From Isurus oxyrinchus (Eukaryota), in assembly GCA_026770705.1 (NCBI GenBank), contig JANJGN010000034.1, forward strand, positions 5,456,001 through 5,520,000: a DNA stretch of 64,000 bases, in the 5' to 3' direction. The translations under genes and the position numbers were made by a program. Each line of letters begins with the position of its first letter. The first letter of the stretch is position 1. Shown piece by piece: positions 1,191 through 58,275 of this stretch. The notes beneath the pieces were generated by a model, which was not told the origin of the DNA, searched no databases, and saw only the letters and a program-made list of their open reading frames with translations.

Positions 1191-1217
1191 AAACGCAGAG
1201 ACTTCTTCAAAAGACAA
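1191..1217 (+). CDS. Gene A micro-exon (27 nt, phase 1-1), xTQRLLQKT; upstream exons lie outside the window or were not found
   Basis: ctctttttcag|AAACGCAGAGACTTCTTCAAAAGACAA|gtaagc; paralogous to 51143-51169 (GLQDLLEKT, same AAAAGACAA|gtaag end). Confidence 0.85.
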
Positions 1218-2519
1218 GTAAGCATCTTGAACTATGCACCAATAATTTTGATTGCCTGCAAAATTGTGTAATTCTGATCACTGAGACACCTCGATGTATT
1301 AGCTAAATTTTATTAGTGCTATAACCAATCAAATGTTCTAAGTAGCATTCCAGCGCTAGCACACAACGGACAACGATCGCCAGTCATGTAACCAGCCAAA
1401 TAATGAGTTGCTTGTGTTGATCCCGGATGTGACCGTAGAACGCATGGTTCAGATGAGCTCCTATCCCTATTATAGATGAGCCTTATGCAAAAACTAAAGT
1501 CATTGTTCTGGAAACACGTCTTTATAGATCTGATACAAATAATAAATCCATAAGATCTTGATGAATTAGTTATATTTTGAAAGACAGCCTTTCACTGCAG
1601 TCTAGAAAACTTTGCGTTTGTCGCATGATGAAGGCAAAAGATTTTGTTTTCATTGCAACTGTAACTTTGGGGGGTGCTGCAAAATTAAATGACAGCGAAA
1701 GGTCGCAGTGGCTTCAGCCACTCGAATTCCATTCCTATTGAGGACAATGTACTGGGAATTTGGCCATATCTTCTATTTCTGTCAGTCATTCTTACTGGTG
1801 CAAGCAATGCTAATGGGTTCGCACTTCACGTCAATAGGAAGCAACAGGCAATGGCAGCTCGGCGTTACTAAAGGTTGAAACTGACAGCAGTATCTAGAAA
1901 ATTTATTTTAGCAGCTAAGGACGGAAAGACAGACACTTTTTTTTCCACAGAGAGACATATGTTTTAAGATATTTCTCATAATCTGGAATGCTGCAGCAAA
2001 CCGAAATTGAGAGATTTAGACACGAGATCCGCACGGATGCTTTTGCATGCAGAGTTAACTGTGTTAATTATCGCTCACAACCTTAATCCATACTTCCCCC
2101 CACCCCAGCTTTATTTTGTTCTATGTACTTTGAAATAGATGATTATCACTCACTTTATCGTTTGCTTTTTCTGGTTTTAATTTGTCTTTCTCAGTGCTTC
2201 ATTTACCAAATTTGAACAATTAAAAAGCCGAGCTGCTAATTGAATTGTTCGCAGAAGCCACATGTCCCCCACTCACAGATATTACAGAGCTGCTATATTC
2301 TGCAACATTTTGAAATAGACCACAGATAAGCAGAGATTTCCAATCACAAATACTCGAAAGCCATGCTAGCATCTGTCACCACTATTAAAAAAATGTTCAA
2401 AGTTCCTTTGCTATTGTGGAATAATAAATAACTACATTTATTATTTAGAAACGCTGCATCCAATAAATTGATAGCTAGATGAAAAGTTAAATTAGAACAA
2501 TAATGCTAGTAACGAGTAT

Positions 2520-3090
2520 ACGTAGGAGAAAAATGTGAGAACACTGATTAGGAACAGGAGTTGGACATTTGAAACCTCAATTCTGCTTCGCCATTCAATG
2601 AGATCATGGCTGACCATTTGGAGCCTCAACCCTAGGCTCCACCTGCCCCATTTCCATTTTTTCTCCCTTGTTCGTCAAAACCCTATCTGCACAGTGGATA
2701 ATGTAATGGCGTTTCATTCAGCGACCTCACTGTGAAGAGTGTTCCAAAGATTCATGACTCGGAGAGGAGGAAAATGATTTCTGATCTTCATGCTAAATAT
2801 GACATCCCTAGTTCACCTCTCTACCACAACGGGAAACAAGTTCTGCCTCCATGCTGTTAAGTCCCCTCAGGATCTTACATGTTTCACTGATATCATCTTG
2901 CGTTCTTCTAAACTCCAACTAATTCAGACACAGCCTATTCAAACTTCTCCAGTCAGCTAATCAACCTCCCAGCTTCATCCCAACTCTCAGCAGAGTTAAC
3001 TTTATCTGCACTGCGTCTAACAAATGTATAGCACTTACTGAATGAAATTAGCAAAACTTTACACCGCATTCCACAAGTAGTCTTACCAAC
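2520..3090 (-). mobile_element. Degraded CR1 LINE 3' fragment
   Basis: Resembles the better-preserved minus-strand CR1 3' ends at 14962 and 39640 (aggagt..cgccattcaat..atcatggctga; agagtgttccaaagattca). Confidence 0.6.
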
Positions 3091-3258
3091 GCCTTGTGTA
3101 ATTGATACAAAAAGGAGAAAAGAACACAAGGTGTTTGTGATAGAATTTGATGGAAATTGATTGGAGCACAATAGCAGATATATTCAGCTGTGGAAAATAA
3201 CCTGAATATGCTGAGTAGCTAACATGGTATTCTACATATGTAAAACATTTTTTTTTAG

Positions 3259-3285
3259 TGGAAACACTATTTGAAAAAGAGAAAG
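3259..3285 (+). CDS. Gene A micro-exon (27 nt), METLFEKEK
   Basis: ttttttttag|TGGAAACACTATTTGAAAAAGAGAAAG|gtatgg; split codon A|TG=Met as in gene B; paralogous to 53727-53753 (MKNLFEKEK). Confidence 0.85.
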
Positions 3286-3510
3286 GTATGGAACCATAGC
3301 AACAAGAGATAATGTTAATGCATTTCCTATTTTTATCATATATAATGTAAATAAAAATGAAACATAGAGACATCAGCAGAGCTGTTATACCATTATGTAA
3401 ATGCAAATTCGAAAATGAAGCAGCAATTGGAATCAATAGCAGTGTGTTATGCTTCAAAGTGTAACGGAAAAAAGATGCCAATGTTAACCGGATCTGCCAC
3501 TTAATTGAAG

Positions 3511-3540
3511 AAGTACATGGTTACGTCGAAGGAATGAGGG
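3511..3540 (+). other. Candidate or decayed 30-nt gene A exon (EVHGYVEGMR) lacking a GT donor
   Basis: aattgaag|AAGTACATGGTTACGTCGAAGGAATGAGGG|caaatg; same position, length and V2/Y5 pattern as gene B exon 54201-54230. Confidence 0.4.
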
Positions 3541-4367
3541 CAAATGCTAAATAAAGGAAGCTGGAGTACAGCTGCAACTTTAGCCTGTATCATTTGGATA
3601 TAGCGAACTTTTCATGTTGCATGTGATTTTTCCCCTCTTTCATTAAGCACACGATGGAATGGACAACATGATTTCAATTCGTCGGCATGCAGAGCTTATC
3701 CAATTTGTACAGAGAAATATGATTATACACAGTTTTAATACAGTTGGTGCATTCGTGTCCTGAATTTTCAGTTAATTTTCCATAATATTTTAAAATGTGT
3801 GTCATTGTATCAGTAATGTGCCAGTGTGAATTGAATTATCATAAATGTAAGAAAATATATTGGGGCGAGATTCAACTTAGGTAATGTTAACACAATTCAG
3901 CATCAAACGGAGCATAAAAGTGTGCCCGATTCAATTCTAACAGTTTATCACTTACCTCCAAGTTGTTTTTTGATGGCGTTGACATTTTTTTTCTGACATG
4001 AGTTTCCTGCAGTGGTCATTTAGTCTGGGAGCTGGAGCCAACAGTGAAAACTCGCCTATTAGTTAACTTCTTAGCCTCAGCAGGAACTTGGTGGCTTTAC
4101 ACTTCGGTGAATGGGGAGATATATATTGTTTTCTTTCCCCTGTGGCAAGAATTACCCGCCACTGAGTGTGTGATAATGGTGTGTCTCCACAGCGTGCAAT
4201 AGATTGAGTGTACATCGGCAATAAATGTGAGACATTTCACTTTCTCTACTGTCATGAGAAAGCTTTGGGCGCAAAAGTAATGTCCTGTGTGTCACGTAAT
4301 GAGTAATTTGAAAATATGATGTTGTTCTCAATGTTGTTTCTGACGATTCAATGTTTAATTTTGTCAG

Positions 4368-4403
4368 ATTTGAAAAAGTGTGAACGAGAGCGGGAGGCAA
4401 ATG
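4368..4403 (+). CDS. Gene A micro-exon (36 nt), DLKKCEREREAN
   Basis: aattttgtcag|ATTTGAAAAAGTGTGAACGAGAGCGGGAGGCAAATG|gttaga; open in phase 1, in heptad register with following exons. Confidence 0.8.
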
Positions 4404-5352
4404 GTTAGAGACAATTATTTGTGCAATGTGTAAATTTGCGAATAAAAGTTATGAAACCATTATTGAATTATGACAAGGATCCGAACAGCAAATTTTTCAA
4501 CGGAGGTCACAATAGCTCGGCGCAGCACTCAACATCCCCGTTATATGGCACCATTTGCAATAGTGCATTAATATCATAAAAATGCAATCATAAAATCTTC
4601 AAGCACAGAAGGGGGACTTTTCGGCCTTTTTGCTTGTTGCAGCTCTTTTCAGCACCGTTTCAATTAGGCCTACCTCAAACTCTTCACGTTTGCTATGCGA
4701 TAATCTCGTTTCCAAGTAGATATATATTCCCATTTTTCAGTTCCCATCGAGTCTCATTCAACCATCGTGGCATGCAATGTAATCTAGATCAATACAATGA
4801 GATATGTAATATACTCCTCGTGATCTTGCGTCTGTTTACTTGCCTTAATTATTTAAACAATGTGACGTGCACATGTTTACACCCTTTCTATTAAGATGAA
4901 ACCATTCGTTGTTAGATCCAATCATTGCCTCACAATTTTGAATGCATCAGTTAATTTGTCTATTAACGTTTTGATGTCTAAACAGAAAAATCTCAGTTTC
5001 TCCTCTCTTTCAAAGGATGTGAAACCCCATAACGATTGATCCACTCAATTGTTTGTTATCAGCATGTTCCTGCATGTAATTATTTTAAAAGAATGCCTTC
5101 TGCTGCTTCGATGCTGTGTTCTGAAACAGCCATCCTAAAAGGCTTAAACAAACTCCACACCCTTAATCGTTTACCGGAATCATTAAGTCCTACTTACTTA
5201 GTCATGTTTCTCATTCATGTTAATACATGCTACCTTGAATTGATGCTTAATTATGTGTTGTCATTTTCCTGGCAAACCTTTGATATATGCACGCTGTTAA
5301 AAACGCTACAAAATGTTTTATTGACTTATCTCACTATTAATTTATTGGACAG

Positions 5353-5379
5353 AGGCAGCATTGGACAAATGTGAGAAAG
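5353..5379 (+). CDS. Gene A micro-exon (27 nt), EAALDKCEK
   Basis: tttattggacag|AGGCAGCATTGGACAAATGTGAGAAAG|gtagga; restores heptad register between the 36-nt exons at 4368 and 11487. Confidence 0.8.
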
Positions 5380-5749
5380 GTAGGATTTTATTAATTTTTC
5401 TCTACAATCTGCAATATCTGCTCCCAATTCTGAAATTTGGAGGTAATTTGAAATAATTATCGAAACCGTCGAGCTCGGAAAAAGGATATTCTCAATATTA
5501 CGAACTTTATACAATCATTGCATCTCTGTCCTCAACCCTACTTCCATTCGTCCGCTGTGTTGGAAAGGCAGTGGCACCTTTATGTTAGAAAAACTCTGCT
5601 TGTGGCCCTTGTAGCAAATGACCTTAAATGTAATTTGTATAGATTTGTACATCAATCCTTTAGTTTGACATCAAGTTGCAATGGAAAACCATCAGCTGAT
5701 TTCACAAAGGCTTTGGAAAAAAATAAAATCCATTTTTTTTTTGCTTCAG

Positions 5750-5760
5750 ATGCAGGGTAA
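5750..5760 (+). CDS. Possible alternative terminal exon of gene A (DAG*)
   Basis: Strong acceptor (T-run)gcttcag|AT GCA GGG TAA in phase 1; no nearby canonical polyA signal seen. Confidence 0.3.
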
Positions 5761-6089
5761 CACATCAAAGAACTTGTTATACATTGGTTGGTAACGACCA
5801 ATAACGTTCTCTCCAACAGGATGGTGGTACCTGAGACAATTATTTCAGAATGAAATTGAATAGCAGACGCTTTATTTGAAAAGCCTTGCTGAGATATGGG
5901 CAGAATATGTTGTTGTCTCGATCTCAATTTCTGGAATTTATTTTCCAAAGCTCTCCAACATTCTCCACCTCTTTGATTGATTGGGAGCATTCTTTAAACC
6001 CAAGTCTATTACTAAACGTTTGTACAATTGTCTGATTAACTTGTTAAAAATACTAATTTCATGGTTCACAGTAATACATTAGAAATTTT

Positions 6090-6880
6090 TATTAGTTCAG
6101 GGATGATTAAAGATAATATGCGGAAAGTGGGATAAATGCAACCAAACCAACGTGAATGTTATTACAGTTAAACTATTGGGCCCTTTTGGACTTAAGGGAA
6201 TAACAGCTAGAAAGATAGGTAAAAAAAAAACAGTAGGTGATATTAGTTCGCTGAAGAACTGGAGAGCATGTCTCGACACTTCTTGCAAAGGAATACAGCC
6301 AAGATAATTCTACTTTTCGAGAGTTCGGGACACAATTAATTTTAAAACATTTAGTCAGTAATTTGCAAAGAATTCTTGACCTCTGAATTGTTCTTGTAAC
6401 CAATCTAAGGATATGGCTGGTCCAGTTCATTTTCTGGTAAATTGTATCTGCAAGAATTGTGAGAGTCGAAGGTTCAATGACAGTAATGACATTTATTCTC
6501 AAAGGGAAAAGGTTAGATGTGTGAGGATTGTATGCGGTCATTGCCTGGAACTAGTGTGATGCGAACATTGTATGCCACTTACCAATGATTACTTGCATGT
6601 TGCCCTGGGCTTGCAGAACATGGGCACAACTTGCCTTAGTCTCTCACGAGTTGCGAATGGTGCTGAATAATATCAAATTCCAAGCGAACTACCCCACTTG
6701 TAGCATCCAAAGTATATTGCATTTATCCCCACTTCTGACATTTGGTGGAAATATAATAAATGATGAAGCAGCTGAAGCTGTTTGATCACGGGACAGTGCC
6801 CTGAGGAACTGCTACAGTGATGCCTGGAACTGAGATGATTGGCCTCCAACAATGTTATCCATCTTCCTCTCCGTTAGGTA
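6090..6880. mobile_element. Adjacent degraded non-LTR retrotransposon fragments
   Basis: CR1-like RT-region remnant near 6100-6280; minus-strand remnant of the 42520-type LINE at about 6380-6880 (gtgccctgaggaact = reverse of the PQG motif region). Confidence 0.45.
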
Positions 6881-7559
6881 TTGTAAGGGGCGTGAGAGTC
6901 CCTTGTGGAGTCTCGCTTAAGTTTGTGGTCGCACATGGAATGAAAAAGGAATGAGTCGCAATGCCAAATAATGTGTTAAAACAACATGTCTATGGTATAA
7001 TGATAATTATAATAAATACATTAAATTCTAATTGATAACACGGAACAAAAAGTAAACAGAAAGGAAGATAACATTATGGAAAGGAAAATAATTGATATGT
7101 TAAAAGAAAGGAAATAAGCCAACTCTACTCACGTACTTTAAATACCAGACTATATTGCAGATATATGCCATGCAAAAAACATTAACCCCAAATTAGTCTG
7201 TCAGGATATCTCCCCAAACTGGAAAACGCCACGAAAGGATCATGATTTGGTAAAATCCCCCTTAGAATATACTTTCCAAAGCCTCTGAATAACGATAAAA
7301 TGGGTGGACACTACAGTCAGTCACTCCAACCCAAGTACTTTCTCCTGTGGTCTCCAGTGGCAGATTCTTCCAGACCAGCTGCATCTCTGAGTCCTGGAGG
7401 CAGTGTCCCTTTCATCAAACATTCTGGCTCCATTACAGCATTTCGGAGTATGGCCCAGATCTTTTCAAAGCAAATTTCAGTCCTTATCAGTTACCCTCAT
7501 AGGCACTGCAAGGTAAGCAACCTTCACAACTTTCAAGTTGATAAGATACTTTTTTTATG

Positions 7560-7940
7560 CTCTCTTCCCATCTATCTATCATCTGTTACTTATTCCATGT
7601 TGTTCTGTCACACAGTGCAGACCTTTGTACTGCTATTGACACAATCTGTTTTCTTACCTTTATCCTCTAACAGCACCTTCTTTACCCCTTACCACTACCA
7701 CTAACACTTATTTTGACTAATGCTCATTGCATTTTTGTCAATCTCTGACCAACCTATCGCTGACCATCTATCATACTCATCCTGCCCCAACCGCCTAAAA
7801 CAGTATCATGTTAATCAAATTTCTACTTATCTTTAGCTCTGAAGAAGATTCATAACGACTCGAAACTGTAACTAAATTCCTGTGCCCACGGATGCTGCCA
7901 GAAATGTTGATTTTTTCTAGCATTTGCTGTTTTTACATTG
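7560..7940 (+). mobile_element. Penelope-like element 3'/terminal-repeat remnant with hammerhead-like motif
   Basis: CTGAAGA-agattc-ataac-gactc-GAAA at 7839-7865 followed by ggatgctgccaga..ttttttctagcattt..gttttt, the reverse-complement counterpart of the element at 52336-52515. Confidence 0.55.
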
Positions 7941-10900
7941 GAAAGAAATAGGGTTTTTTTCAGTGGTGGCGCACATACAATGTGCTGTCAAAGCAGCAAA
8001 ACATCAGCTGTGAATATGCTGAGAAAGAGGAAAATTTGATTAAAAAGTCCAATATACAGTTAACAATATTAGTGACAATCTAATTTACCAAAAGTCAAAC
8101 AGCAATAATACTAGTTTGTGTCAATGTCTACATAGAAAGATGTTGAATATTGCATAACTGTAGCAATTCTATATAGGTTCAGAAGCAAGAGCACAGCAGG
8201 ATTGAACTGCAAAAAAATAACATTGGAATAATTAGCGACTGGAAGCTTTTGGTATATGGTATGACTCTCATGATTGGAGAGCTTCGCCCCGATACATAAT
8301 TACTCCCGTTTTGCTGGGTTTGCTTCATGCCGCATTCGTTCAATGGGGCTTTGATGTCAAAGGCAGTCATTCTTGCCTCTCCTCTTGAGTTCAGCTCTAT
8401 TCTCCATGTTTGAAGTACGGCTTTAATGAGGTCAGTGGCCCTGGCACACCCAAACTAAGTGTCCCTGAGTGCTTTATTTCTGAGTAAGTGCCGATAAATA
8501 ACAATACGCATGACAAATTCGATCAATTTGATGATGATCAGGTGTAGACTGTAGGGGGGTAATTTTCCTGTTTGGTTTCGTCCTGTACTTTGCTGCCACA
8601 ATGTACGTGGGCAGCTTTGGAAAGCTGCCTACGGACATTGTGGAAACAAAACACAGCACTATTGTTGAAAATTCAGCACTATTGCTGAAAAATTGTCAGG
8701 TAACTTACTCTTTGGAATATAATGTCCCTTCATCCTTTATTGATATCATGTGCAGTGAATCGAATTGCCTGAATGGATTATTTGTGACAACTAGAAATTG
8801 AAAAAACTTGAATTCCAACTTCATGATTGGTTGTTATTTTCTTCCTCGTTCAAATTTATGTACTTCCTACAGCTCTCTTTATTTAGTTGCACTCTGTTGT
8901 TCTTACTTTTCTCTTAATGACATCTCTTCTTTCTGCATCAGCATCTGCGTTCGTTTTTCGCTGATAAACTCCGTGTTTCCTATTTGCTGACAGCAATGAA
9001 TCTCCCCGCAAAACACTTTCTTCGCCCTTTGTGATTTCAGCCCATAGCCCTATACAGCTCTGCCCCCAACAGAACTCATCCAAGTGTTGAGATGGATGGC
9101 AAAGCAGTACTTTCCACTGATTCCAACATTAATGCCATTCATGCAAAAAGGAGTAGAATTAAGGATTTTCAACTCTGATGCACTGTCAATATGTATTTCC
9201 CTCCTCACTGAAACACGTGTTACAATGATGTCACTCTTCCACTAATTTCTTATTCTGCTCCAGAAGTGTGGGTTGCTCCAATGCTTCTGGTAGGAATGTG
9301 CCCACACCTTCAATCATACCATTTTCTACATCACGTAAGGCGTGGCTTAGCAATTACGCTTCAGGTCTATTTTAATTGAAGCACTTACCTACATTTTTTA
9401 GTAAACAGTACACCGTGAAGTTTGATAATGTTGGCTGCATTGTCCCCACAAAACTACAAGAAGGACCACCCACACCGCACTCCACAGATATCAGTGTCTT
9501 TGGTAGTGCTCCACATTTGCATGCACTGTGTTCCCCGAGAAGCTATAACGCTTAGCGATATTTAAAGCTGAATGCCAGTTTATGAGCCGTTCAGTTATTA
9601 GCTGCCTTTCTGTTCCTTCTTTTCAGGGCACAAAAGTTTTTTTTTTCGAGTTTCCACAATTTGCAAATACAACAGTGTCTTCAGCGCCCTTTCCTATATT
9701 TTCCTCTCCGGGCCTGTCCTTTGATGTCATATCCAACACTGTAACAAAACTGTTGCTTCAAACCGGTGTCTAGTTCTAAGAATATGTTTCAGTTCTGTCC
9801 CCGAGGCTGGTATTCCAAGGAAATGAGGAAGAAATATCAGAGTTCAAAATTGTTAACCCTCTGTCAGGTCAGCCTTCAGTCTTCTTCAACCAAGAAAGAG
9901 CAACGACTCTGACGTGATGGATACAACATTTTATTTCCCAAAGGATGTTATTCCCAATATATGTATGAATCAAGGTTGAGATGTCATCTCCACATCTCAA
10001 TTGAAAATTGTGCTTGAGCGAAATTTCCTGTTTCGTTTAGATCAGACAGCATAAGTTTCGACAAGCTGATGCTTTGTGCGGAATGTTTGTTTGCCTGATG
10101 ACATAATGGCTGGAGATCTTCTGCCATACTAATCACAGCAGCGTTTTAACAAACACTGCACTTATTTTTTTGGAATCAAAAGGGAAAACAACAAAAAAAA
10201 ACTTAAATATGACACGTTTAAGTACATTTGCCTTTTGATCCGACTTCCCGGTGCCAGAAATCAGTTTGCCGTCAATAGAATATAGACAATTGTCTTCACA
10301 GTTTTAACTTGAGAGGAAAATGAGCTTGTTTGCGCGTAGCTGGTCCGAAAGCAAATTGGAGATTGATAAGATAATCTATTTTACCTATGCTGCTTGTTAT
10401 ATAATTAGCTACCTAACTTTTCACGACAACCTCCCTCCAACTATTGAACATGTTCATTGGAAAATTGTGGAAACCCCTGAAAATGTTGGAAAGAGAAAGA
10501 ATGACGTATCAAATCATGTTACGAGCAATAGCAACCGCAGTGCCTTTTTTCTTCAATGCTGTTCTCGGCAGCAGGCTGGCTAATATGCTCATACCTTTGG
10601 TGTGGCTTTTGAAAGAGTGACAGCTGACCTCACACTTAGATGATTTGAAGTTAATTTATTTTGCTCATTGAAACACAGAGATTTGAATTCAGTGAGAAAT
10701 AAAATTATGGCGGAGTGGGCGGATGGTATTGATCAGAAAGTAATTATATTCACGGGTACAGCTTACTCTACGCTGCACAAAGGGATAAGTTTCACTTTGG
10801 ACAATTGTACAGAAGGGCCTTTTTTATTTTGCTGCCACCAGCTTTTAAAAAAAGGAATGCAATTCAATTCTATAATAGTCAAACCGTTTCATATATCACA

Positions 10901-11486
10901 TTTCATATGGTTGCTCGAAGTTATATCTTCTCCCCAACGCAATGTGCCATAATTTGACGTGTTGAGCCGTGGCACTTGTTAACATTCTTCTATTGCATAC
11001 ACCTATTTATATCACTTATTATTAAGTTGCTAGCACATATCCATCTTCATCGGGCATCGATCGGTTTATATTCACAATGTAATGACTGCGCATAGATTCT
11101 AAAACATGCCTAACAGTGCTGCCCTCTTTAAGCATGAAACCTTAAAACGGTGCCTTGGCTGCCTCTTCATTTCGTTGTAAAATATCCCATAACTGATTTA
11201 GAATTGGAACCAAAATATTGATGTCCGGGCAGAGGGCAACGTTTATACCAAAAGGAAAAGCAGTAAAAAAAAAACTTTCTTGCCAATTGCCATAACACAG
11301 TTAGTGGGATACAACTAAGTGCACATTCGCTTCTAATTGGGCTATGTCACAACATTTACAATACTTCAACCGTCATTCATTGGCTGCAAAATGCTCTGGG
11401 ATGACGCAACTCCTAATTTAAGTAGTTTGAAGTCAGGGGTTTCTCATTCAGGCAAACATTTACCAGTGATATTAACTTTATTTCAG

Positions 11487-11522
11487 AACTGAAGGCATTG
11501 AAAACAAAGTTGAAAGATGCAG
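11487..11522 (+). CDS. Gene A micro-exon (36 nt), ELKALKTKLKDA
   Basis: ctttatttcag|AACTGAAGGCATTGAAAACAAAGTTGAAAGATGCAG|gtcagt; Leu at 2/5/9 as in EIKQLKQQLDEC (39163). Confidence 0.85.
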
Positions 11523-11966
11523 GTCAGTTAGCCAAAAACAGACAACGTTCTGGCACCGTTGACGAATTTTAATAAGATGCTGTGCAAGATAACTAAACAT
11601 ACAGAGGTGAAAAGTCATCTTCTATGACAGTTCGAAATAGGCAATATGAAGTCTTCTATTTTCAAAAAATATTTCTGCTTGATATTCTTTTGCATTAAAT
11701 TCAATGGATGATTTGTCAGGCATTGCAAAACTGATTGGCAATCAAAAATGTGCCAGCGCCCCTGTTGAATTTGACTTCTGTATTATCGATAATACGCGTA
11801 GGCCAGCTACCTGATCCCATTCCTTGTTTAGGATAGGACTTCCGTGGGTATTTTCGTGATTCAGGTAACTTGCATGAAGTAGCATTCTGGGCTCATATGT
11901 TGTTTAAAAAAACTGAACTGAAATATTCTCAGGAAATTTGTAAAAAATATTTTTGTCCTTTAACAG

Positions 11967-11993
11967 AGAAAAGGCGTGATGATGCACAAGCAG
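11967..11993 (+). CDS. Gene A micro-exon (27 nt), EKRRDDAQA
   Basis: ttttgtcctttaacag|AGAAAAGGCGTGATGATGCACAAGCAG|gtacgt. Confidence 0.85.
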
Positions 11994-12129
11994 GTACGTG
12001 GGAATGAGACGTATGACTAAAGGCGAGATTTGTTCGAAAGTCCTGTGCAGCTGCATGAATTGACGACATTTCGAGCATAAGCAATTAGCTTTTCATTCAA
12101 TGTGCGCTGTTACCCTGTCTTGTTTACAG

Positions 12130-12156
12130 AAGTCCTCGGAAAATGTAAACCGGATG
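12130..12156 (+). CDS. Gene A penultimate micro-exon (27 nt), EVLGKCKPD
   Basis: ctgtcttgtttacag|AAGTCCTCGGAAAATGTAAACCGGATG|gtgagt. Confidence 0.85.
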
Positions 12157-12367
12157 GTGAGTTAAAATTAGCAGTATGCCAATAATTCACTAAAATGCAG
12201 AATAGACTGACTGTGCATGCCTTGCAATTAATGGAAAAAAACGCAGCCATTAATCTGCAGTATAATGAGTCACACAAAAGTTAAAATGAAAGGTGAAACC
12301 ATCTCTGAGGCGAATACCATTTATATCTACACTCCATTTTTATTGTTTATATCTTTTTTTGTTGCAG

Positions 12368-12390
12368 ATTGCTGGAAATATCATGGCTAA
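12368..12390 (+). CDS. Gene A terminal coding exon, DCWKYHG*
   Basis: cttttttgttgcag|ATTGCTGGAAATATCATGGCTAA; 23 coding nt, same as gene B terminal exon; ATTAAA near 12659 and AATAAA at 13145 downstream. Confidence 0.75.
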
Positions 12391-13498
12391 GCATCCTTAC
12401 TCCAACCATACAGCAAACACTCAACAACGACTGTCACATGGCAACACCTAAATCCCCAAGGCGCATTGTCAAACGACAGGTGTCGGAAGTGATGTTACTC
12501 TGCATTATACAAAAGTAGCATTCTTGATGTCAGGCCAAGTCGCCATTTACTCACGCACAACATTATTGAAAGACAGTGTGATGACGATTTTTCCAGCAAA
12601 TTTACAGCATTTCCAATTGCAAAATATTGAGAACATGTTTTACATCTCAGTGTATTTAATTAAAAATCTCCCCACCCCAGTAATGTGCGCTACACTTGGG
12701 ACCCTAGGGCCATTAGGTGCAGCTGGAATAGTTGGCATCGTGATCCCATGTTTTGAACTTTTATCGAAAAAAAATCTATATCCCCAAGAAATCGAACTGT
12801 CTATACCCTCAGGCGAAGAGAAAGGATCCAAGTGCATTTCAGCAATTTAAATAAGACAGTGAAATGACTGTTTGTTTTATAATTGGTCGCTGATCAGATA
12901 CCATTGTGCCACTCACAATGTCAAATTTCAATTGAAAACTAGCGACATTGGCAGCAGTTGCCTACATATCGCTACTTCTTCCACTTCAATTGATTTCAAT
13001 GAAAACTATGAGTTGTTTGCAGCGGGTGGCCGCTCGTCTGCCCAACTCCATGCCCCACATGAATTGAAATTAAACCATTGTTTCCAGGATATTTTCCACC
13101 ATTGTAATCTTCCGTTGATAGATCCTGAAAGAGCCTAGCATCCAAATAAACAAGCTGTAACTTTTCCAACATTTCAAATGTTCCACAATTCTTGGCTGAA
13201 AAAATATCGTCAATTCACGAGACTCAGAACTTTGGAATTCACCCCTAAACTCCTCTGCCTCCCGTCCGCGTTTTCCTAATTTCAAGCATGTCTGAACACA
13301 AACATTATTTCACATCTTGCATCTCTTTCTGTTGGTTCCTTTCACAACGTGTGTGATCATTCCCCAGTAAGCTGAAGGGGGAATGAAACATTGCATTAAA
13401 TTTTCAGTGCGACTATGCATTCTGATTGAGTTTAAATTGGACTGAAAACGGAGAGAGCTCCTGCGCAGTCCCAATGTTATTGTGTTTTTTTTTACAAC

Positions 13499-13568
13499 AT
13501 GTTTCAATATCAATATCAGAACCAAACTCAAAGTTTTCCGTGCCTTATCTGCAATGATCCAATGCTTG
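13499..13568 (+). CDS. Candidate first coding exon of gene B (MFQYQYQNQTQSFPCLICNDPML)
   Basis: First ATG after an in-frame stop, open to phase-1 donor ATGCTTG|gtgagg, 250 nt before exon 13819; second in-frame ATG at 13562. Confidence 0.35.
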
Positions 13569-13818
13569 GTGAGGTCAAAAATCACGCTGTTGTTGCACTG
13601 GGGCTTGTAATTGGCAAATTGTGTGATTGTATAAAGTATATCGCATTGGATGCCCAATACACAGCGGACCATTGATGTCTAACACATGAAGGAATAGGTG
13701 ACATATTGAATGGCCAATATAAGATGCACAATTGAACCAGTACTTTGGCATTACTTTTCTCATTTTTGTCACGAAAGTATCAGGTAATCTGATGCATTGA
13801 ATCGTCTCTTCTTTGCAG

Positions 13819-13845
13819 AACAAAGGTTGATTGATCAACTGGCAG
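13819..13845 (+). CDS. Gene B micro-exon (27 nt), xQRLIDQLA
   Basis: gtctcttctttgcag|AACAAAGGTTGATTGATCAACTGGCAG|gtaaat. Confidence 0.8.
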
Positions 13846-13989
13846 GTAAATAATTAATGTAGTTTTTATTACTCGAATGGCTGGGAAGTTTTCATAGTTG
13901 AATGTCGGTGTTAGCAATCCTTTCAGCTTGTTCAATTGACACAGAACAAAGGTTGTGAAACACGAGGATAGCTGGATCACAAGGGGCAA

Positions 13990-14930
13990 AATTTCAGTAT
14001 GTGGCCAATGCTCTGATGTGAGTGGCCATACTTGCAGTTTAAAATATTACGCAGGTTGACCTTTTGGAACAAATAGAAACATTTTCCCTGGTCCATCCTC
14101 AAGCGTTGAAGAGTTGTGAAGATTTCCTGTAACTGGTTGAAACGGAGGGTTTCACCACAGGTATAAGCTGGCTGCATGCAGCTGGTGATATTTGCAGGCA
14201 TCCAACAATTTACCAATGAGGACGGAGTCAGATTTTGACCTCCGTATGGTGTTCCAGTGGGCTAAACAACGTTCCTGTAGGGTGTTTTTTTTTTAATGTC
14301 CATTTGAACAAGACTACTTTGTTAAATGTCAGCTTGTGTTATTCTTTGAGGAACGTGCTTACCCTGAGGACATGACATTTTTCATTGTGGGCTAGCACAG
14401 GAAGCCACCTGATCTGTGTTAGTCACAACGGCCCAGAGAAAATCCTCACGGCATCACAAGTATGCATAACTGACATGATTCTGTGCCAGCTTCTGAGCCA
14501 GATTAGGCATTAGTCCACTGCTGGTGCGTGGAGCAGGCCAAGTGAGGCACTGCATTGTTTGGTGGCCCTGATCCTCCAAGTGCTACAAGGCCCTTGCTTA
14601 TGAATACAACTCAATCGTGGCTCCGATGTTCTGGAGGCGATGATGGTCCGTCACAATAGTATAAAGACTGATGTCCTCGTGTTTTTCCATTGGATCTTGG
14701 GTTATTGTTGGTCCGCAGAACTAGATATGAATATATTCCCTCGCTTTCCAGTTACTCAGATGGAATTCTGAAACGACAGTCTGGGGCATATTCGTGAAGC
14801 AGATTTTAAGAAATGGTAAATCTGCATGGAATGATGAATCCATGCCCGGAATCTCTTTGTCCTGGCAAACCCTGTTTAAATCATCATTATCAGCAGATAG
14901 TGGCATTGTTGTTGGACAGTGATTATATCT
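13990..14930 (-). mobile_element. Degraded RTE-like LINE remnant
   Basis: Minus-strand ORF 13977-14216 has AYTCGETL..FQKVNLRNIL, resembling the RTE LLYGCETW..F...LRRIL C-terminal motifs. Confidence 0.45.
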
Positions 14931-14961
14931 TTCTAGCTGAAATTGCCTCTGAGAGTTTGAT

Positions 14962-16300: not shown

Positions 16301-16336
16301 ACAATCGCAGGTTGAGAGATGAGCTGAGAGATAAAG
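16301..16336 (+). CDS. Gene B micro-exon (36 nt), DNRRLRDELRDK
   Basis: ctactttcctttatag|ACAATCGCAGGTTGAGAGATGAGCTGAGAGATAAAG|gtcagt. Confidence 0.85.
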
Positions 16337-27601: not shown

Positions 27602-27628
27602 ACGACAAGCTGAAAGCGAAAGATGAAG
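27602..27628 (+). CDS. Gene B micro-exon (27 nt), DDKLKAKDE
   Basis: cttgttattgattacag|ACGACAAGCTGAAAGCGAAAGATGAAG|gtaaaa. Confidence 0.85.
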
Positions 27629-33690: not shown

Positions 33691-36099
33691 AACTCAGTTT
33701 GGAGGAAACCAGGATAGCACATTATCCCTTAACTGTGGAGAAAAAACTTCTCACAGTGTCCCAAGTGCGGTTTCACAAGAGATCACTGCAACTCTATTTT
33801 TGTAATTCAACACATTTTCCTTAAAGACTAAAATGTGAATTCCTTTCCTCATTGTTTGATATACTTTTTATGCTAACTAGCAACTTTCCTTGTACAAGCC
33901 AAGTTCTTCCAAAGATATAAAAAAAAGTGAAATGTACGCCTTTGCTAAATTGCATTTTTTTTATATTCTTTCTGTTAACCTTTTGGCAAAACATGGATAG
34001 GGGAAATGCTGGATACAACGACAACTAATGTGATGCATTAATATGGCATTGCACGTTTGCAGGAAATCAGTTGAAGCATGTGGGAAATTAAGGTTGGGAA
34101 AGCATAAATGGGGGCAAGTAACACATTTCTCCTGAGGCTGTCTCTTGAACAAAAGTATGGCAGAAAACCGTTATAATTTAACACCAACAGCCCTATGTTT
34201 GTTTCAGTCGTCTTAGTTTTCTTATTCAATATGAAAAAAGGCCTGTCCTAAATTGTGGCATTAGTCTGCGAGAACTGATTATCACTTTAAAGAAACTTAC
34301 CAAAAACAGGAAGAACAAAGCAACTGCGATTACAAATATGCAGACAGGGCAAGTGTCAAATGACAGTGGTGGCCCAGGTTTAGATTGCACTTTGGTGCTA
34401 GTGATGATTTGGATCGATTGACGTTTGACCTGAGACTACAAAATATTCCGTCTGAAACCTGAGTCACCTAGATAGATTACCCACATCCAAGAAGCTGATT
34501 GAGGCATTGCTTTTCTCACCTAGTCGGTATATCACAGCAAACAGGTATCTCCTACAGCGTTGCAGAAGACGATAGAAAAGGAAAGAAATGCAAGTAAAGG
34601 GGTAAGTATGGAGAGCACACGCTGTGCTCACTCGCATTTGTTGCAGTTGTGCAAATATCATTTGAGACTTTTTCCACTACCTGGTTAGTTTTCTAAATTA
34701 TTATTAAGAACTTTCATTTGACTGAAGGTTTCCACATCCAATAGAATTCTCGGGAGGCTGTACACACTTTAACAATTTTAAGAAATTACTGCATAGCAGC
34801 TGACGGGTGGCAAAACAATCAACAGTGCTAAAGTGAATTGACCCACAATATGCTAAAAAAAATAAAGCAGCAATTTGCTCTGTCTACTCAACCTAACGGG
34901 TGTTATATTTTGTTTTGGAAGCATCCTTTTTGCGTTTGAAATTTCGTTGAAATTCGTCCTCATTATTGAGATACATTGTTTGCAGTTAAGCAGATTGACA
35001 AGGATGAAAACATCAGGAGAGACAAATAGCAGCAAAATTGGATGCTGGAATGTTCCACAGTGGCAGATTTTTGTGACCACAGACATCTTGATAAACCTTC
35101 GTATCCGTGGCATTAGAGCTTGCCAGATGGATCGCTGACAATATACTAAACAATGATGTTTGCTTTGCGGAACATGGCTCACTGATGGAGTTTGGATCAG
35201 GTAACAAATACTTTTGGTCAAGTAAGTGAAATAAGAAATTTAACAACATTTTACAATAGTTCCCTTAATTGTTAATAAGACAACTGCCAGCAGGTTTCAG
35301 AAATTACGCGATGATAATCATGATCCACTCCTTTCCAAATCGAGGAAAGTCTTCCTTTGGCTGCAATCAGCATATATGGTAGTTTCTCCAAGCCGATGCG
35401 TTAACAGAAGAAGGATTTAAAAAAAAAACGTATTAGTGATATTGCACTGCATGGCCGTTTCAGGGCGGACCAACATTTATTTCCAATCCCTAGTTTCGCT
35501 TGTGAAAGTGGTGCTGAGCTGACTGCTTGAACAGTTCCAGTCCATGAGTAGCAGGAATGCTCACACTGCTGATCAGGTGGAACATACTGAATTTTGATCT
35601 AGCAACATTGACGCAAGGGCAAAATGCTTCCAAGTCAGGGTGCTCCGTGTCTGGGAAGATAACTTGAAGATGCTGCGGTTTGCATGTATCTGCGTTCCAT
35701 TTCCTTAAAGGTGCTGGATTTCGACGCTTTAGATGATGTTCCCGAAGGAGCATGCCAAGTTACTGCAGTGCAACTTGGAGCTGGTTCACATTGCTGTCAT
35801 TGTGTGCCAGAGCTGGAGGGGGGGAGTATGCAGATGGTCGATTTTTAACCCGAACCATTCAGTTTAATTTTTAGGTTGCGTCCATGGACGGGCTTATGCT
35901 ATTTGGTGATTTACGAGTTGCATTGTTGTGAACAGGAGGATAGAGGATGTGTAGTGGGCAGCTATTGAACCTGCAACAGTAACGATCAGACAATCATGCT
36001 ATATTTCTGCATGGAGTCTAATGTAAGCATCAATGTTTCTATTTGTCATCACTGAGGCAAAATAAAGGCAGATTCGACGTACTCTCTCGAAAAAATCTA

Positions 36100-39162: not shown

Positions 39163-39198
39163 AAATCAAGCAACTAAAGCAGCAATTAGACGAATGTG
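39163..39198 (+). CDS. Gene B micro-exon (36 nt), EIKQLKQQLDEC
   Basis: ttttacatatgaaatacag|AAATCAAGCAACTAAAGCAGCAATTAGACGAATGTG|gtaaga. Confidence 0.85.
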
Positions 39199-47324: not shown

Positions 47325-47351
47325 AAAGAAATTTGAAGAACAAACAAACAG
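47325..47351 (+). CDS. Gene B micro-exon (27 nt), ERNLKNKQT
   Basis: tatttatatgaacgcag|AAAGAAATTTGAAGAACAAACAAACAG|gtaaga. Confidence 0.8.
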
Positions 47352-49659: not shown

Positions 49660-49808
49660 TCAACCATCTATCTATTTGCCTGCCCATCTATCTATCTATC
49701 TAGTTACTTTTTTACCCATCACCTATCTATCCATCAATCTATGTATCTATCTATCTATTTCTCTATCTCTATGTCTACTTATCAATCTATCTATCTATCT
49801 TTCTCTTC

Positions 49809-49869
<61 letters not shown>

Positions 49870-49900
49870 ACTATCTACCTACCTATCTTCGTGTCTATCC
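49660..49900. repeat. (TCTA)n / GATA microsatellite with degenerate flanks
   Basis: Pure atct array at about 49809-49868; degenerate copies extend to about 50300. Confidence 0.95.
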
Positions 49901-51142
49901 ATCTGTATGTCTGTTTCTCTGTCAGTCCATCCGCACAGCTTTCGACATTTCCTTCTGACTATCGACCAACATTCATATAGATATCTAGCACTATTTCTCC
50001 ATCTATTTATCAATTCTATCCATGTACATATCTGCTATCTAAATGTCTATTATCAAACTGCCTCACGACTATTTATCTATCTGTTTACCAATATTTTATT
50101 GCTTAGTTTTTATCCGTATACTTTCTACCAAAATATCTCCCATCATTAACTTAACTATATATCTACTAATCTGCTATTTAGCCATCTATAACCTACATGC
50201 TTTGGGTCATTTCCTAACGCTACCAGCCCACCCAGCTTGATCTATTGATAAATTTATCCACAATTAGTGATCTGCCTATTCTCCCTATTTACCTCTATCA
50301 ATGGAGCGATCTCGCTAGAAAGTTGGTTTCATATACGTATTGATAATGACCCATATATCTAAATATCTGTCTGTATTAACCAAAGAAACAAATCAGTTTG
50401 ATTAATGGAAGGCTGAAACAGAAATCGGCAACGCTGAAATTCTGAACCAGTCTCAGAGGATCAGTGTGGAGAGAAGCAGTCTTCAAGTTTCACGTCCCGG
50501 AAATTATATTCCATTTGCAAAACAAAATCGTGAAATTTGACGTTTCTGCAATTGTATGCTGTGCGTGTATGATAGCGAAGAAGCATTTAAATGTTCACTT
50601 TCATTGATACCAATTCATCTGCCAAGCATGCAGAACATTGGCGACCAGCATAGGAGCAAACTGTAGGAAGACATAGATGGATGACTGGCAGCAGAAAAAA
50701 AATGGCAGTTTGAAAATGTGGCAGATATCTGAACGAGTCATATATTGGTAGGAAAACGCTGGTGATAAATTAAAATTTAAACGTTACTTTATAGACAAAT
50801 ATAAAAACAAGAAAGATGAACGTGGGGATGCATATACTCAAATTATTGAAAGGAGGAGAACAAGTCGATAAGTGGTTAAGAAATCAATGCAGCCTATCCA
50901 ACATTTAGCTTATTTTATTTTCTCTGAAAACTGTTCAATATAAGCACAAAAGTGAACTTCCTAATTTTTGTATATTCCACAGAAGCTGTAATCACGCTTT
51001 CTGTTACAATTCATTCATCTTCTATGGCCTAGTAATGATTGCTAACACGATGTTTGTTCATTTTTAGGTTAACTTTGAGGGGAATACTCGTTTCTTTGTC
51101 TTTGGATGTGTTTCCAAATCATTTGTGCTGGTTTAATTTCAG

Positions 51143-51169
51143 GACTTCAGGACCTCCTGGAAAAGACAA
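51143..51169 (+). CDS. Gene B micro-exon (27 nt), GLQDLLEKT
   Basis: ggtttaatttcag|GACTTCAGGACCTCCTGGAAAAGACAA|gtaagt; paralog of 1191-1217. Confidence 0.85.
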
Positions 51170-53726: not shown

Positions 53727-53753
53727 TGAAGAATTTGTTTGAGAAAGAGAAAG
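53727..53753 (+). CDS. Gene B micro-exon (27 nt), MKNLFEKEK
   Basis: aattgttttaacag|TGAAGAATTTGTTTGAGAAAGAGAAAG|gtaagc; paralog of 3259-3285. Confidence 0.85.
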
Positions 53754-54415: not shown

Positions 54416-54417
<2 letters not shown>

Positions 54418-54460
<43 letters not shown>

Positions 54461-54461
54461 C
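54418..54461. repeat. (CA)n microsatellite
   Basis: acacacac.. run with one cg interruption. Confidence 0.95.
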
Positions 54462-55839: not shown

Positions 55840-56900
55840 CAAATGGTGCACTCTTTTTAGTGGTTTGCCGCAGGAATCAAGTGCTAGGGCCTCAGCTATT
55901 TACAATTTATTTCCAAGACATGGATGACGGCACAGAGTACGTTGTTGCCAAATTTCTTGGTGGTACAGTGATGCATGCGAAATCAAGATTTGCAGAGAAT
56001 GCAGACAGCCTTCAACGGACATAAAAAGTTTAAGAGTGTTGATACAATTGAGCCGATGAATTTATCTGTGGCAAAAATTGTGGTTTGCAATTAGGCAGTG
56101 ATAATAGGAATGCGAACATTATATGCCTATAGTGAAAACTGCAGACTCCTGTGGTACAGAGGAAATAGTGTTCCTTTGTACATGAATTACATTTTAGCAT
56201 GGAGTGACAGCAAGTAACTAGGAGGACAAGTTGAATTTTATTCTTTAGTGCAAGGGAAATTGAATATTATCGTAGGTTTCTTACTCCTAATGTGCAGGGT
56301 ATTGATGAGACTGGACATTTTGTAAAGTGCCCTGTTTAAATCGCCATACTTAGATAATGATGTGCTCACCTTGAAAGCAAATCATAGGGTGTTCACTTGT
56401 TACATTGCTGTGGTTAAAGGGTTCCTTCATGAGAACAGTTTGGAAATTACTCATTGGTGTTTAGAAGAAATGAGTGAAATTATTTAACCATCTGAGATTC
56501 TGGGAGTGAAGTGGAATGTGGTTAAGTGAGTTTGAAAGGATAATTGGTGAGATGAAGCTTCCTCTCTTGGGGAGTATGTCAAACTTGGGTGCCCAGTAAC
56601 TAAAATGAGTCTTCAATTTCTGAAGGAATGGAGGTGGAATTCCTTTTCTTGAAGAGTCATTAGATTTTTTTGTAATTCTCTTTAACAGGGAGCAGCCGAG
56701 GCTTAGCGATTGAATGTATCCAATTCTGTGTTGGACCATTTTCCACGATTGACAAGGGAGTCAACGTTATGTGGAGCCGGCAAGAAAGTGATATTCAGGC
56801 CACAATCGAAACCCATTACCTGATTTTCCGGTGGAACAGCCATTGAGGGGCTTATTTGTCTCTTTCTGCTCCTTTTTCTTACAGTTGTATGATCTTATGA
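55840..56900 (+). mobile_element. Degraded CR1 LINE 3' part
   Basis: gtgctagggcctcagctatttacaatt (VLGPQLFTI) and CR1-type 3' end ..tgtatgatcttatga. Confidence 0.75.
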
Positions 56901-57240
56901 CATTTGATCCGTATTCGGACACGAGTGCCAGCATACTTTCAGACGTTGAACTCTCAGGTTCCCTCAGATTATTTTATACTTGAATCAGAACACCTTTTAT
57001 TCTTCGTAATGTCTCTGTGTATGAATCCAACTTACTCAGATTTTCGTCATAACACAATCCCAAGAAACAACTGAGTGATGTTTCAATGAAGTGCTTTTGA
57101 TGCAAGGTATCCCTCCGGGAATTGGTAGGCTCATCCTGCAACAATATTATAAGTGTGCTATTGATATTTTCCTGTAACGGCACACCATGTAATACATCAT
57201 CCAAGTACATTTAACTCATCGGGTTGGTATTCATTTTTAG

Positions 57241-57264
57241 AAATAAAAGATTTGAAGGAAAAGG
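57241..57264 (+). CDS. Gene B micro-exon (24 nt), EIKDLKEK
   Basis: ttcatttttag|AAATAAAAGATTTGAAGGAAAAGG|gtgaga; matches the first 8 codons of the 36-nt exon class. Confidence 0.8.
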
Positions 57265-58079
57265 GTGAGACACAAAGGAAAAACAGAGAACTTAATTTAC
57301 AACTTGATTTTCTGAAATACATGCTTTGTATGCAACTTAGTTAATCAGTTTTGTCTGTTTGTTCAATTCAGTGAAATGCGTAAAGGAAACCTTTCTTTTG
57401 CACCGCCCCTAAAATGAGAGAGTGCTACATACAAACGATCAATCAGTCGTGAAAAAGATGACCATCTTTATTCTTTGCATCCTTGCTTTGTGTAATTACT
57501 GCCATCTCACAACAAACCTCATCGACCCATCACACCAAAACTTGCTGAGTGAATCAGACTGAAAGCAGCTTCACCTGGGACTGGATTTTTTAAAAATTCC
57601 ATTTTTCTTTTCAAATTCATCATGGGTTCTCCATTCATTAATTGAATAACTTCATCCTAGCCCACAACCATACGAGATATCTCCATGGATGGAGTGTTGC
57701 CCTCTTTAGAATGCCCGATTTTAATTGTTCTATAATTGCAGCCTTTGGCTGCCATGGGTCTATATTACCCACTAAAGGATTCCTTGATGTTTCCCACTCT
57801 TTTCTCAAAGAAAGGGGCTTCAAGACGTTTTTCACATAACTTGTTTTTTTTTGTTATTTCCTTCTTGTGTATTTTGAGGCTTGGTGAAAGAAGAATAATA
57901 ATTCAAAGCACTCTAATGAATTGCATTGGTGCATTTTCGTACTTTAAGTGTTGTAGATGCTCAATGTTTCTGTAGTTTTTGTTAATATTGTGAATTAATA
58001 TGAAATAGAGTAATGATATATTTTTGTACTATTAATTTTATAGGAAATATTCTCCTACTCACGTATGTTTATTTAATAG

Positions 58080-58106
58080 GTGCCCATGGGGCTGATTCGA
58101 CAAAAG
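58080..58106 (+). CDS. Gene B penultimate micro-exon (27 nt), GAHGADSTK
   Basis: gtttatttaatag|GTGCCCATGGGGCTGATTCGACAAAAG|gtaagg. Confidence 0.8.
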
Positions 58107-58252
58107 GTAAGGAAACTCACAATGCACAATTGGTATCCAAACTAAAGAAGAAGACCAAAGGAACATTATTTTTCTCCTGTTAAAATTGAAAACCTATGTC
58201 GCTGTCATGGCCTCCTCCAATACGATTTATTTGTTCCTTTGTCATTTTACAG

Positions 58253-58275
58253 GCAGGCAAACAATGCACAAGTAA
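58253..58275 (+). CDS. Gene B terminal coding exon, GRQTMHK*
   Basis: ctttgtcattttacag|GCAGGCAAACAATGCACAAGTAA; 23 coding nt like gene A terminal exon; ATTAAA at about 58488. Confidence 0.75.

Follow-up and report, generated by a model that had tools for sequence, protein, structure and literature searches.

Micro-exons of an Isurus oxyrinchus contig and the large coiled-coil gene to which they likely belong

A stretch of 64,000 nucleotides from Isurus oxyrinchus (contig JANJGN010000034.1, positions 5,456,001 to 5,520,000), which we call the window, contains a series of exons of 23–36 nt. Are they small genes in their own right, or pieces of a larger one? The initial annotation of the window proposed the former: two tandem, stand-alone genes (A and B) for small leucine-zipper proteins. 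Our answer is that the 16–17 conserved micro-exons of the window come from an array at C34:4.86-6.40 Mb (C34 is the contig of the window), likely one gene, whose product is probably a secreted, disulfide-linked rod tipped with a B30.2 domain. Taken as a whole, we hold this answer with middling confidence. The array containing the window is called g1, and its paralogs g2, g0, g-1 and g-2.

Micro-exons of the window and the array around them

All 19 micro-exons described previously could be rebuilt on the + strand: 17 internal exons (AG..GT, phase 1-1) and two stop-bearing candidates of 23 nt. The internal exons include eleven of 27 nt, found at 1191..1217, 3259..3285, 5353..5379, 11967..11993, 12130..12156, 13819..13845, 27602..27628, 47325..47351, 51143..51169, 53727..53753 and 58080..58106; those at 51143 and 53727 are of the same type as 1191 and 3259, respectively. 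Five have 36 nt (4368..4403, 11487..11522, 16301..16336, 34558..34593 and 39163..39198) and one has 24 nt (57241..57264). The exon at 34558 is weak or decayed, with a model score of 4.8, and its acceptor is lost in g2. Splice sites are intact in g2 for the exons at 1191, 4368 and 58080; the exons at 3259, 11487 and 13819 are intact in both g2 and g0, and those at 12130 and 16301 have counterparts in g0. When only generic splice scores are used, 11 of the 24 candidates on the + strand of the window have a size of 27 or 36 nt, against none of the 16 on the - strand; over 464 kb, the figures are 82 of 198 and 6 of 126. Since these two lengths pile up on the + strand, the micro-exons are more than chance. 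A scan of the window agrees with the initial annotation in that it contains no Ig or B30.2 exon, and no Rfam family is found in it. Comparing the DNA with itself reveals recent copying within g1 for just one window exon, 11487, and there only faintly.

Gene A gives 76 aa and a stop, as claimed, while gene B gives 105 aa and a stop from 317 nt (103 aa from about 310 nt had been reported). Nevertheless, a division into two proteins is not borne out: joined in order, the 17 internal exons code for 167 aa without a stop, and the array extends on both sides. It reaches about 0.6 Mb upstream and about 0.88 Mb downstream of the window (the next exon after 58080..58106 is at C34:5529701), and its terminus is a B30.2/SPRY exon at C34:6395819-6396339 (+, PF00622 E 2.3e-13), with a phase-1 acceptor. 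The 5'-most exon identified, of 111 nt, is at C34:4859457-4859567 (+) and has a counterpart in g0. The window corresponds to about 4% of this single array leading to the B30.2 exon, not to a tandem of small stand-alone genes, and it is likely the middle slice of one cartilaginous-fish gene of about 1.5 Mb. We have counted 254 array exons in the 1.18 Mb read; 360 kb of the 1.54-Mb array span lie outside the DNA read. For the whole array we estimate 320–380 exons, which would code for a coiled coil of about 3,200–3,700 aa.

In 1.04 Mb, a model trained on this same DNA finds (score 8) 198 array exons on the + strand and 3 on the - strand. Held-out DNA gives the same picture: 17 and 0 in 50 kb of the unread middle, 45 and 1 in g2, 54 and 1 in g0, and, in two minus-strand genes, 0 and 21 and 0 and 15. 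The 90 kb between genes have none on either strand, eight of these nine stretches being inside the training DNA of the model. The 226 scored exons include 105 of 27 nt, 86 of 36 nt and 31 of 21 nt, the latter mostly in two blocks and absent from the window. Only one of 194 joins between successive exons gives a stop; the donor of the exon involved is weak, and the g2 copy of that exon lacks an acceptor. The earlier recognition of hidden coding micro-exons, coding for a coiled coil in a cartilaginous-fish setting, was right. Genes as large as this and built almost entirely of 21–36-nt exons escape both ORF scans and 31-mer RNA indexes, and one with several hundred micro-exons is a test case for splicing.

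The terminal B30.2 domain and its relatives

The B30.2 exons of the C34 genes group with gene models from sharks, rays, skates and chimaeras in a clade with 100/100 support. The sister B30.2 exons are on contig C21, close to MHC class I, within a cluster of TRIM type. Those models of the clade which we have scanned contain only a coiled coil and SPRY, without Ig or RING, and two of them have a signal-peptide-like start. They include skate XP_055510696 (295 aa, named "TRIM69-like"), chimaera XP_042192744 (1,697 aa, "nuclear-pore anchor-like") and XP_042191566-8, catshark XP_038668997 and bamboo shark chiPu_0007878. They are far shorter than g1, from about 180 to 1,700 aa; protein searches, weak enough to miss some known models, found none longer than 1,697 aa. 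For the skate protein, a structure model (pLDDT 75) has a pair of long helices, and its C-terminal domain is rich in strands.

The automatic names are misleading ("TRIM39/58/69-like", "A33-like"), and databases carry these genes as short misnamed fragments. A full-text literature search with six homolog accessions gave 0 papers, and no description of the family was found in literature listings and the openings of abstracts. An RNA index gives no data set for window positions 11400-13200. Four of five contig sets with the same label have no exon cover in the B30.2 exon region, although these sets may be DNA or come from the wrong tissue. Four sets have no splice joint at window positions 1-20000; the same applies to them, and the index words are longer than a 27-nt exon, so that these results speak neither for nor against expression.

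The initial annotation noted a kinship in design with the heptad exons of butyrophilins and chicken BG genes in a lineage-restricted family, and the comparison bears this out. In butyrophilins, heptads are followed by a terminal B30.2 domain, as in g1 (PMC8813856). On the other hand, no IgV/IgC or transmembrane exon has been found in the g1 DNA scanned, its rod would have thousands of residues where butyrophilins have a few heptads, and its array is not on the contig carrying MHC class I. The g1 DNA scanned has no credible D-x-G-x-Y-x-C frame for an Ig exon. No Ig family is found in 59 of the 65 open frames of at least 78 aa near the 5' end; the other 6 lie before or inside the B30.2 exon of the upstream gene, and the 10-kb locus borders may split frames. 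Chicken BG genes form a tandem cluster and have a long coil of many 21-nt exons, with alternative splicing of the tail (PMC5938342). They have IgV, a transmembrane segment and about 30-38 heptad exons, but no B30.2; g1 has about 10 times more exons, mostly of 27 and 36 nt, and B30.2 is present. The array bears on the origin of the heptad micro-exons in both families.

The rod and its probable product

The rod has a hydrophobic period of 3.52 and no transmembrane segment, with a maximum hydropathy of 0.54 over 19 aa. Core slots comprise 259 of 1,900 positions and contain 55 of the 65 cysteines, a partly circular figure, as the slots were read from the same data. The exon units would hold the coil in register: 21 nt correspond to one heptad, 36+27 nt to three, and 36+27+27+27 nt to 39 aa with one stutter. 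Gene length would change through duplication and loss of exon blocks, and probably also through exon skipping; isoforms of database homologs differ in blocks of 6-9 aa. We infer that a single transcript joins all array exons, and that the chains would pair in parallel, with inter-chain disulfides between core cysteines. The rise of a coiled coil is 0.15 nm per residue; the stalk would be roughly 0.5 micrometre long.

The beginning of the protein is less clear, as the hunts for a first exon of g1 and g0 have yielded only unconvincing candidates. One candidate lies inside an apparent decayed LINE, and both its ATG and its GT are lost in g2. A match which resembles the end of the 111-nt exon was discarded, as it is not on the expected strand and its surroundings look like a repeat; a genome search with the 111-nt exon finds only itself. 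By eye, the 111-nt exons of g1 and g0 and a 39-nt exon of g-1 open with a similar short hydrophobic stretch, with Glu directly after it. In g-1, an ATG exon of 10 codons, which ends in a strong phase-1 donor, suggests a signal peptide for this gene. A short first exon and the 111-nt exon would together code for a signal peptide. Of the six database models tested, two are hydrophobic at the N-terminus: the proteins of skate (XP_055510696) and chimaera (XP_042192744) begin with a hydrophobic 12-mer (2.66 and 2.93, respectively) which agrees with the -3/-1 rule, and the chimaera protein has two RxKR sites past it.

These sequence features suggest that the product is probably a secreted, disulfide-linked rod. 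If the N-terminal hydrophobic segment is uncleaved or absent, the same giant gene would instead code for a cytosolic rod and B30.2 domain, an Ig-less membrane tether similar to butyrophilins and BG. We consider this unlikely, even if several observations fit it: the heptads and B30.2 domain of butyrophilins are intracellular, behind a membrane segment (PMC8813856 and PMC12841164), and the closest solved structure is the B30.2 domain of BTN3A1 (E 6.8e-20), with TRIM58 barely behind. Furthermore, the hydrophobic stretch of the chimaera model is followed by a strongly basic cluster, compatible with a membrane anchor and a cytosolic rod, four of the six models have no hydrophobic start, and N-glycosylation sequons are few (6 in 1,900 aa). 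Against this, the hydrophobic stretches extend over only about 10-15 aa, in agreement with the -3/-1 rule where the homologs have them and followed by Glu in g0, g1 and g-1. Core-position cysteines are found all along the rod, while the B30.2 exons of the C34 genes have few (0, 0, 0, 0 and 1; 31 outgroup domains average 1.5, a weak difference, as 5 of the 31 have none). A secreted, disulfide-linked rod is our best reading, because of the signal-peptide-like starts of homologs and the location of most cysteines in core positions. A precedent for an extracellular B30.2 domain is found in vespryns, venom PRY-SPRY proteins of the ohanin type (PMC12730704), but ohanin has only 107 aa and no long rod, while g1 has 254 counted rod exons.

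By analogy with collectin-like stalk-and-head proteins, the B30.2 heads would cluster at the end of the stalk and bind a surface ligand with avidity. A more complete picture, which we put forward tentatively, is that of an undescribed chondrichthyan family of secreted, disulfide-stapled fibres of up to half a micrometre, tipped with B30.2, coded by 300-380 micro-exons and with headless isoforms from ends such as 58253. If true, the exon count would rival that of titin, which has 363 exons. A stalk, its length set by exon number and splicing, would then carry a normally cytosolic immune recognition domain out of the cell. Secretion would imply a new use of B30.2 and a novel type of fibre outside the cells of sharks, rays and chimaeras.

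Stop-bearing exons, paralogs and selection

Five genes of this type, alike in layout, are found in tandem on C34, where they occupy about 4.8 Mb of a small chromosome. Their B30.2 exons, all of them intact, are at 2.71(-), 3.47(-), 4.82(+), 6.40(+) and 7.50(+) Mb; none of 150 scored matches indicates a further one between 4.82 and 6.40 Mb. The proposal of a tandem family is correct in this sense, although each unit is a gene of roughly 0.5-1.5 Mb and not a small one.

The stop exon assigned to gene A, at 12368..12390 (+), is probably a chance intronic acceptor: its AG is AA in g2, where there is also a 3-nt gap, and the window has 7 strong acceptors with a stop within 10 codons downstream. That of gene B, at 58253..58275 (+), is different. 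Its acceptor, its first 19 nt and its stop position are all kept in g2, and the surrounding region (58230-58330) has 91% identity between g1 and g2, in the top 1.1% of 5,548 overlapping windows. Poly(A) hexamers near this exon are found in different places in g1 and g2. It may be a real alternative terminal exon, which would give a rod without B30.2.

This conservation would fit an array which yields not one transcript but several shorter ones with alternative ends, a wider form of the two-gene proposal, in which the full-length B30.2-tipped form is rare or never made. The lengths of the homolog models, the lack of any scored exon over stretches of 52 and 32 kb and the truncation of BG tails through alternative splicing (PMC5938342) would also fit. 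We find such an arrangement quite unlikely, given that g2 has lost the 12368 stop exon, that exon order over both proposed breaks follows the repeat unit found elsewhere in the array, and that g0, g1 and g2 have a common block order, each with a single B30.2 exon at its end. In addition, no start exon is evident by eye between 12390 and 13819, and the exon at 13819 appears as internal, not as a gene start.

The window internal exons share 452 of 501 bases (90%) with g2, compared to 79.7% of all aligned bases. Of the 226 exons, 30 match between g1 and g2 over their full flanks, and selection was tested in these. They keep 58 of 60 splice dinucleotides (background 61%), have indels in 1 of 30 exons (134 of 544 intron windows) and contain zero stops, with a dN/dS of 0.46 (Fisher p 0.004). 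The g1 exons are under purifying selection. It is very improbable that the locus is a decaying relic which has lost its expression. Decayed exons do exist (34558 and C34:5091461 among them), dN/dS is high for a conserved gene, and g2 lacks 240 kb at the 5' end, the 111-nt exon among them, and yet keeps its splice sites, which a one-gene model does not explain. Nevertheless, the conservation of splice sites, reading frame and exon lengths greatly exceeds the background, the five B30.2 exons are intact, and homologous models exist in chimaera, skate, ray and sharks.

The least probable reading, to which we give hardly any credence, is a TRIM gene whose coiled coil has expanded hugely and whose RING/B-box exon was overlooked: it would agree with the database names and the C21 cluster, but six-frame scans upstream of g1 and between g0 and g-1 contain no RING/B-box pattern, and there is no Pfam match to these domains in the same 59 frames or in the skate and chimaera models. 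TRIM-B30.2 proteins do share with g1 a coiled coil and a C-terminal PRY-SPRY; the TRIM coiled coil is an antiparallel dimer. The basic phosphoantigen pocket of BTN3A1 is formed by His/His/Lys/Arg/Arg/Arg, residues which g1 has not kept; in our own reading of the alignment, g1 has S, S, M, S, L and K at these six positions, only the last being a conservative change.

The micro-exon array and its limits

The window (G000:C34:5,456,001-5,520,000) is part of a 19.9 Mb contig in a genome of 4.98 Gb. Scanned with generic splice-site scores, the window has 24 short candidates on the plus strand versus 16 on the minus strand; lengths of 27 or 36 nt are found in 11/24 and 0/16, respectively. A model trained on the micro-exon array around the window recovers 16 internal exons, and one more, 58080, comes from the generic scan. 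All 17 have AG..GT boundaries and are phase 1-1, and together they splice into 167 stop-free amino acids. About 1.09 Mb downstream, a paralogous block aligns with the window over 56 kb. Exon bases are identical in 452 of 501 cases, versus 79.7% overall in the alignment, and both splice sites are kept by 16 of the 17 exons, the exception being 34558. The initial annotation had reported hidden plus-strand phase-1 micro-exons, and this observation was largely right. Of its two spliced proteins, the 76 aa one is reproduced with its stop candidate, while the second has 105 aa, not 103. Its interpretation as two small stand-alone genes is wrong: The window is a middle section of a far longer array, which ends in a B30.2/SPRY exon.

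In 464 kb around the window, 27 or 36 nt lengths account for 82 of 198 strict candidates on the plus strand versus 6 of 126 on the minus strand. Upstream, the exons form two 21-nt blocks and then another 27/36-nt block before a 111-nt exon (C34:4,859,457, +), the limit of the array as followed. Its downstream end is the B30.2/SPRY exon (C34:6,395,819-6,396,339, +; PF00622, E 2.3e-13). At model score 8, this gene (g1) has 195 exons in C34 4.859-5.840 Mb and 42 in 6.250-6.396 Mb, and false calls amount to 3 on the minus strand of 1.04 Mb. Five 10-kb samples of its otherwise unread middle contain 17 further exons. Extrapolation over the whole array, of which 360 kb lie outside the DNA read, predicts about 320 exons and 3,200 aa if the average density holds, or up to approximately 380 exons and 3,700 aa if the middle samples are representative. 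Only 1 of 194 exon joins produces a stop. The exon before it has a weak donor and its copy in the neighbouring gene g2 has lost the acceptor, so we take it as a presumably decayed exon.

Two stop-bearing exons had been proposed as gene ends. At the first (12368-12390), g2 reads AA in place of the acceptor AG, followed by a gap. In addition, the window contains seven strong acceptors that soon run into a stop, and this end is therefore probably due to chance. The flanking exon types (12130, then 13819) occur in an order which recurs repeatedly further down the array. The second (58253-58275) fares better: g2 has the same acceptor and stop position and preserves the first 19 nt, and for identity to g2 the 100 nt around it rank in the top 1.1% of overlapping windows, but nearby poly(A) hexamers are not aligned between both genes. 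It may be a real alternative end, giving a rod without a B30.2 head.

The window also contains an (ATCT)n array of 55 copies (49686-49904) and a high-copy repeat (~14960-15810) with summed contig depth >1,000 in two runs. Two overlapping open frames of 283 and 175 aa (62536-63387, +) have no Pfam match at 0.01; they resemble a decayed Penelope-type reverse transcriptase, and a similar element is found at C34:4,948,975. Short intronic stretches at 3315, 3787 and 12181 are matched by contigs with long unrelated flanks (in three, two and one runs, respectively, among the matches shown); these flanks have no match in the paralogs compared.

Five tandem genes, and selection between g1 and g2

The top five matches in a genome search with the B30.2 exon are all stop-free and all on C34, at 2.71(-), 3.47(-), 4.82(+), 6.40(+) and 7.50(+) Mb. 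A skate homolog used as query picks the same five. A micro-exon array on the same strand comes before each of them: Outside the training DNA, plus versus minus exon counts in the neighbours of g1 are 54 vs 1 in g0, 45 vs 1 in g2, 0 vs 21 in g-1 and 0 vs 15 in g-2. The 90 kb between genes give 0 vs 0, mostly inside the training DNA of the model.

The layout of g0 repeats that of g1, including the 111-nt exon. The g2 gene matches the upstream 22 kb of g1 and then jumps 240 kb (4,850,374-5,091,194 of g1; junction G000:C34:6455836-6455841), therefore the 111-nt exon and the first exon block are absent. Its remaining exons look constrained despite this loss. A candidate hydrophobic ATG exon lies at C34 6,421,428. 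The 5'-most candidate exons of g-1 and g0, placed head to head, are within 8 kb (G000:C34:3997772-4005537), which suggests a shared promoter region. Between g1 and g2 there is a broken GPCR-like gene with stops (G000:C34:6414031-6416900), presumably GPR139-like; the one frame scanned has no Pfam match.

Selection has been estimated on 30 of 226 g1 exons, those whose flanks match in full in the g2 DNA compared. Identity is 90.4% in exons versus 82.6% in introns, and AG/GT is kept at 58 of 60 exon sites versus 61% of intronic AG/GT. Indels are found in 1/30 exons versus 134/544 intron windows, and there are no stops in these exons. The 29 indel-free exons have dS 0.195, dN 0.089 and dN/dS 0.46 (Fisher p 0.004), beside an intron distance of 0.199. 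For the B30.2 exon, dN/dS is 0.45.

Predicted product and relatives

The joined rod contains 19% K, 16% L, 14% E, 10% D, 3.4% C and 0.5% P, and its hydrophobicity repeats with a period of 3.52. Leucine is found in 60-67% of cases at position 1 of 21-nt exons, positions 1 and 8 of 36-nt exons and position 3 of 27-nt exons. Given these positions, 21 nt code for one predicted heptad and 36+27 nt for three; the 36+27+27+27 unit (39 aa) can be read as containing one stutter. Alternate core slots, 259 of 1,900 positions, hold 55 of 65 cysteines, a partly circular figure.

Most likely, the g1 product is a stalk-and-head protein. We infer a single transcript, whose product would be exported by a signal peptide. 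Its chains would pair in parallel as a coiled coil held together by disulfides in the core, with B30.2 heads at the tip that would attach to a surface ligand with avidity. In the main rival reading, the same gene would encode an uncleaved anchor that leaves the rod in the cytosol, as in butyrophilins. Hydropathy finds no membrane-crossing segment in the joined rod, and a search for the first exon of g1 did not find it. Two homolog models, one from skate (295 aa) and the long one from chimaera (1,697 aa), have a hydrophobic start fitting the -3/-1 cleavage rule; four others lack it.

The g1 gene works with parts of known families. Butyrophilins have IgV-IgC, a membrane segment, a few heptads and B30.2; in BG proteins, IgV and a membrane segment are joined to a long tail encoded by 21-nt exons, and there is no B30.2; TRIMs have RING and B-box (PMC8813856, PMC12841164, PMC5938342). 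The B30.2 of vespryns is able to act outside cells (PMC12730704). The g1 gene shares heptads and B30.2 with butyrophilins, and a long coil built in part from 21-nt exons with BG proteins, but it has B30.2, unlike the latter, and no Ig, RING or B-box exons have been found at its 5' end. It departs from each of the four families in a defining feature, so we place it under none of them. Full-text literature searches, outside subscription journals and supplements, found no description of this family. It is an undescribed variant of the coiled-coil plus B30.2 design, and its gene size and number of exons are extreme.

Among proteins, the closest named homologs found are all from cartilaginous fishes. 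In a tree of 34 rows picked from search matches, vespryn not among them, the C34 B30.2 exons group at 100/100 with bamboo shark, catshark, basking shark, epaulette shark, skate, electric ray and chimaera models, and 17 TRIM/butyrophilin-type rows stand apart from this clade. The models in the clade have database names such as TRIM39-like, A33-like or nuclear-pore anchor-like; they contain SPRY and lack Ig and RING families, and their isoforms differ by 6-9-aa blocks. Compared with the skate coil, the g1 rod reaches E 9e-8 versus 7e-4 for a reversed control, a modest margin. Near the chimaera model, the ESM Atlas has clusters of SPRY proteins 1,277-1,802 aa long, among them one named 'isoform X51'; these are leads only.

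MHC class I matches are found on C21 (31/33) and C16, and C34 has none. At G000:C21:82-118 Mb, >100 TRIM-type B30.2 exons surround the MHC class I cluster. Two of these exons, at 89.7 and 91.3 Mb (L128, L129), belong to the sister clade of the C34 genes and may head similar micro-exon arrays.
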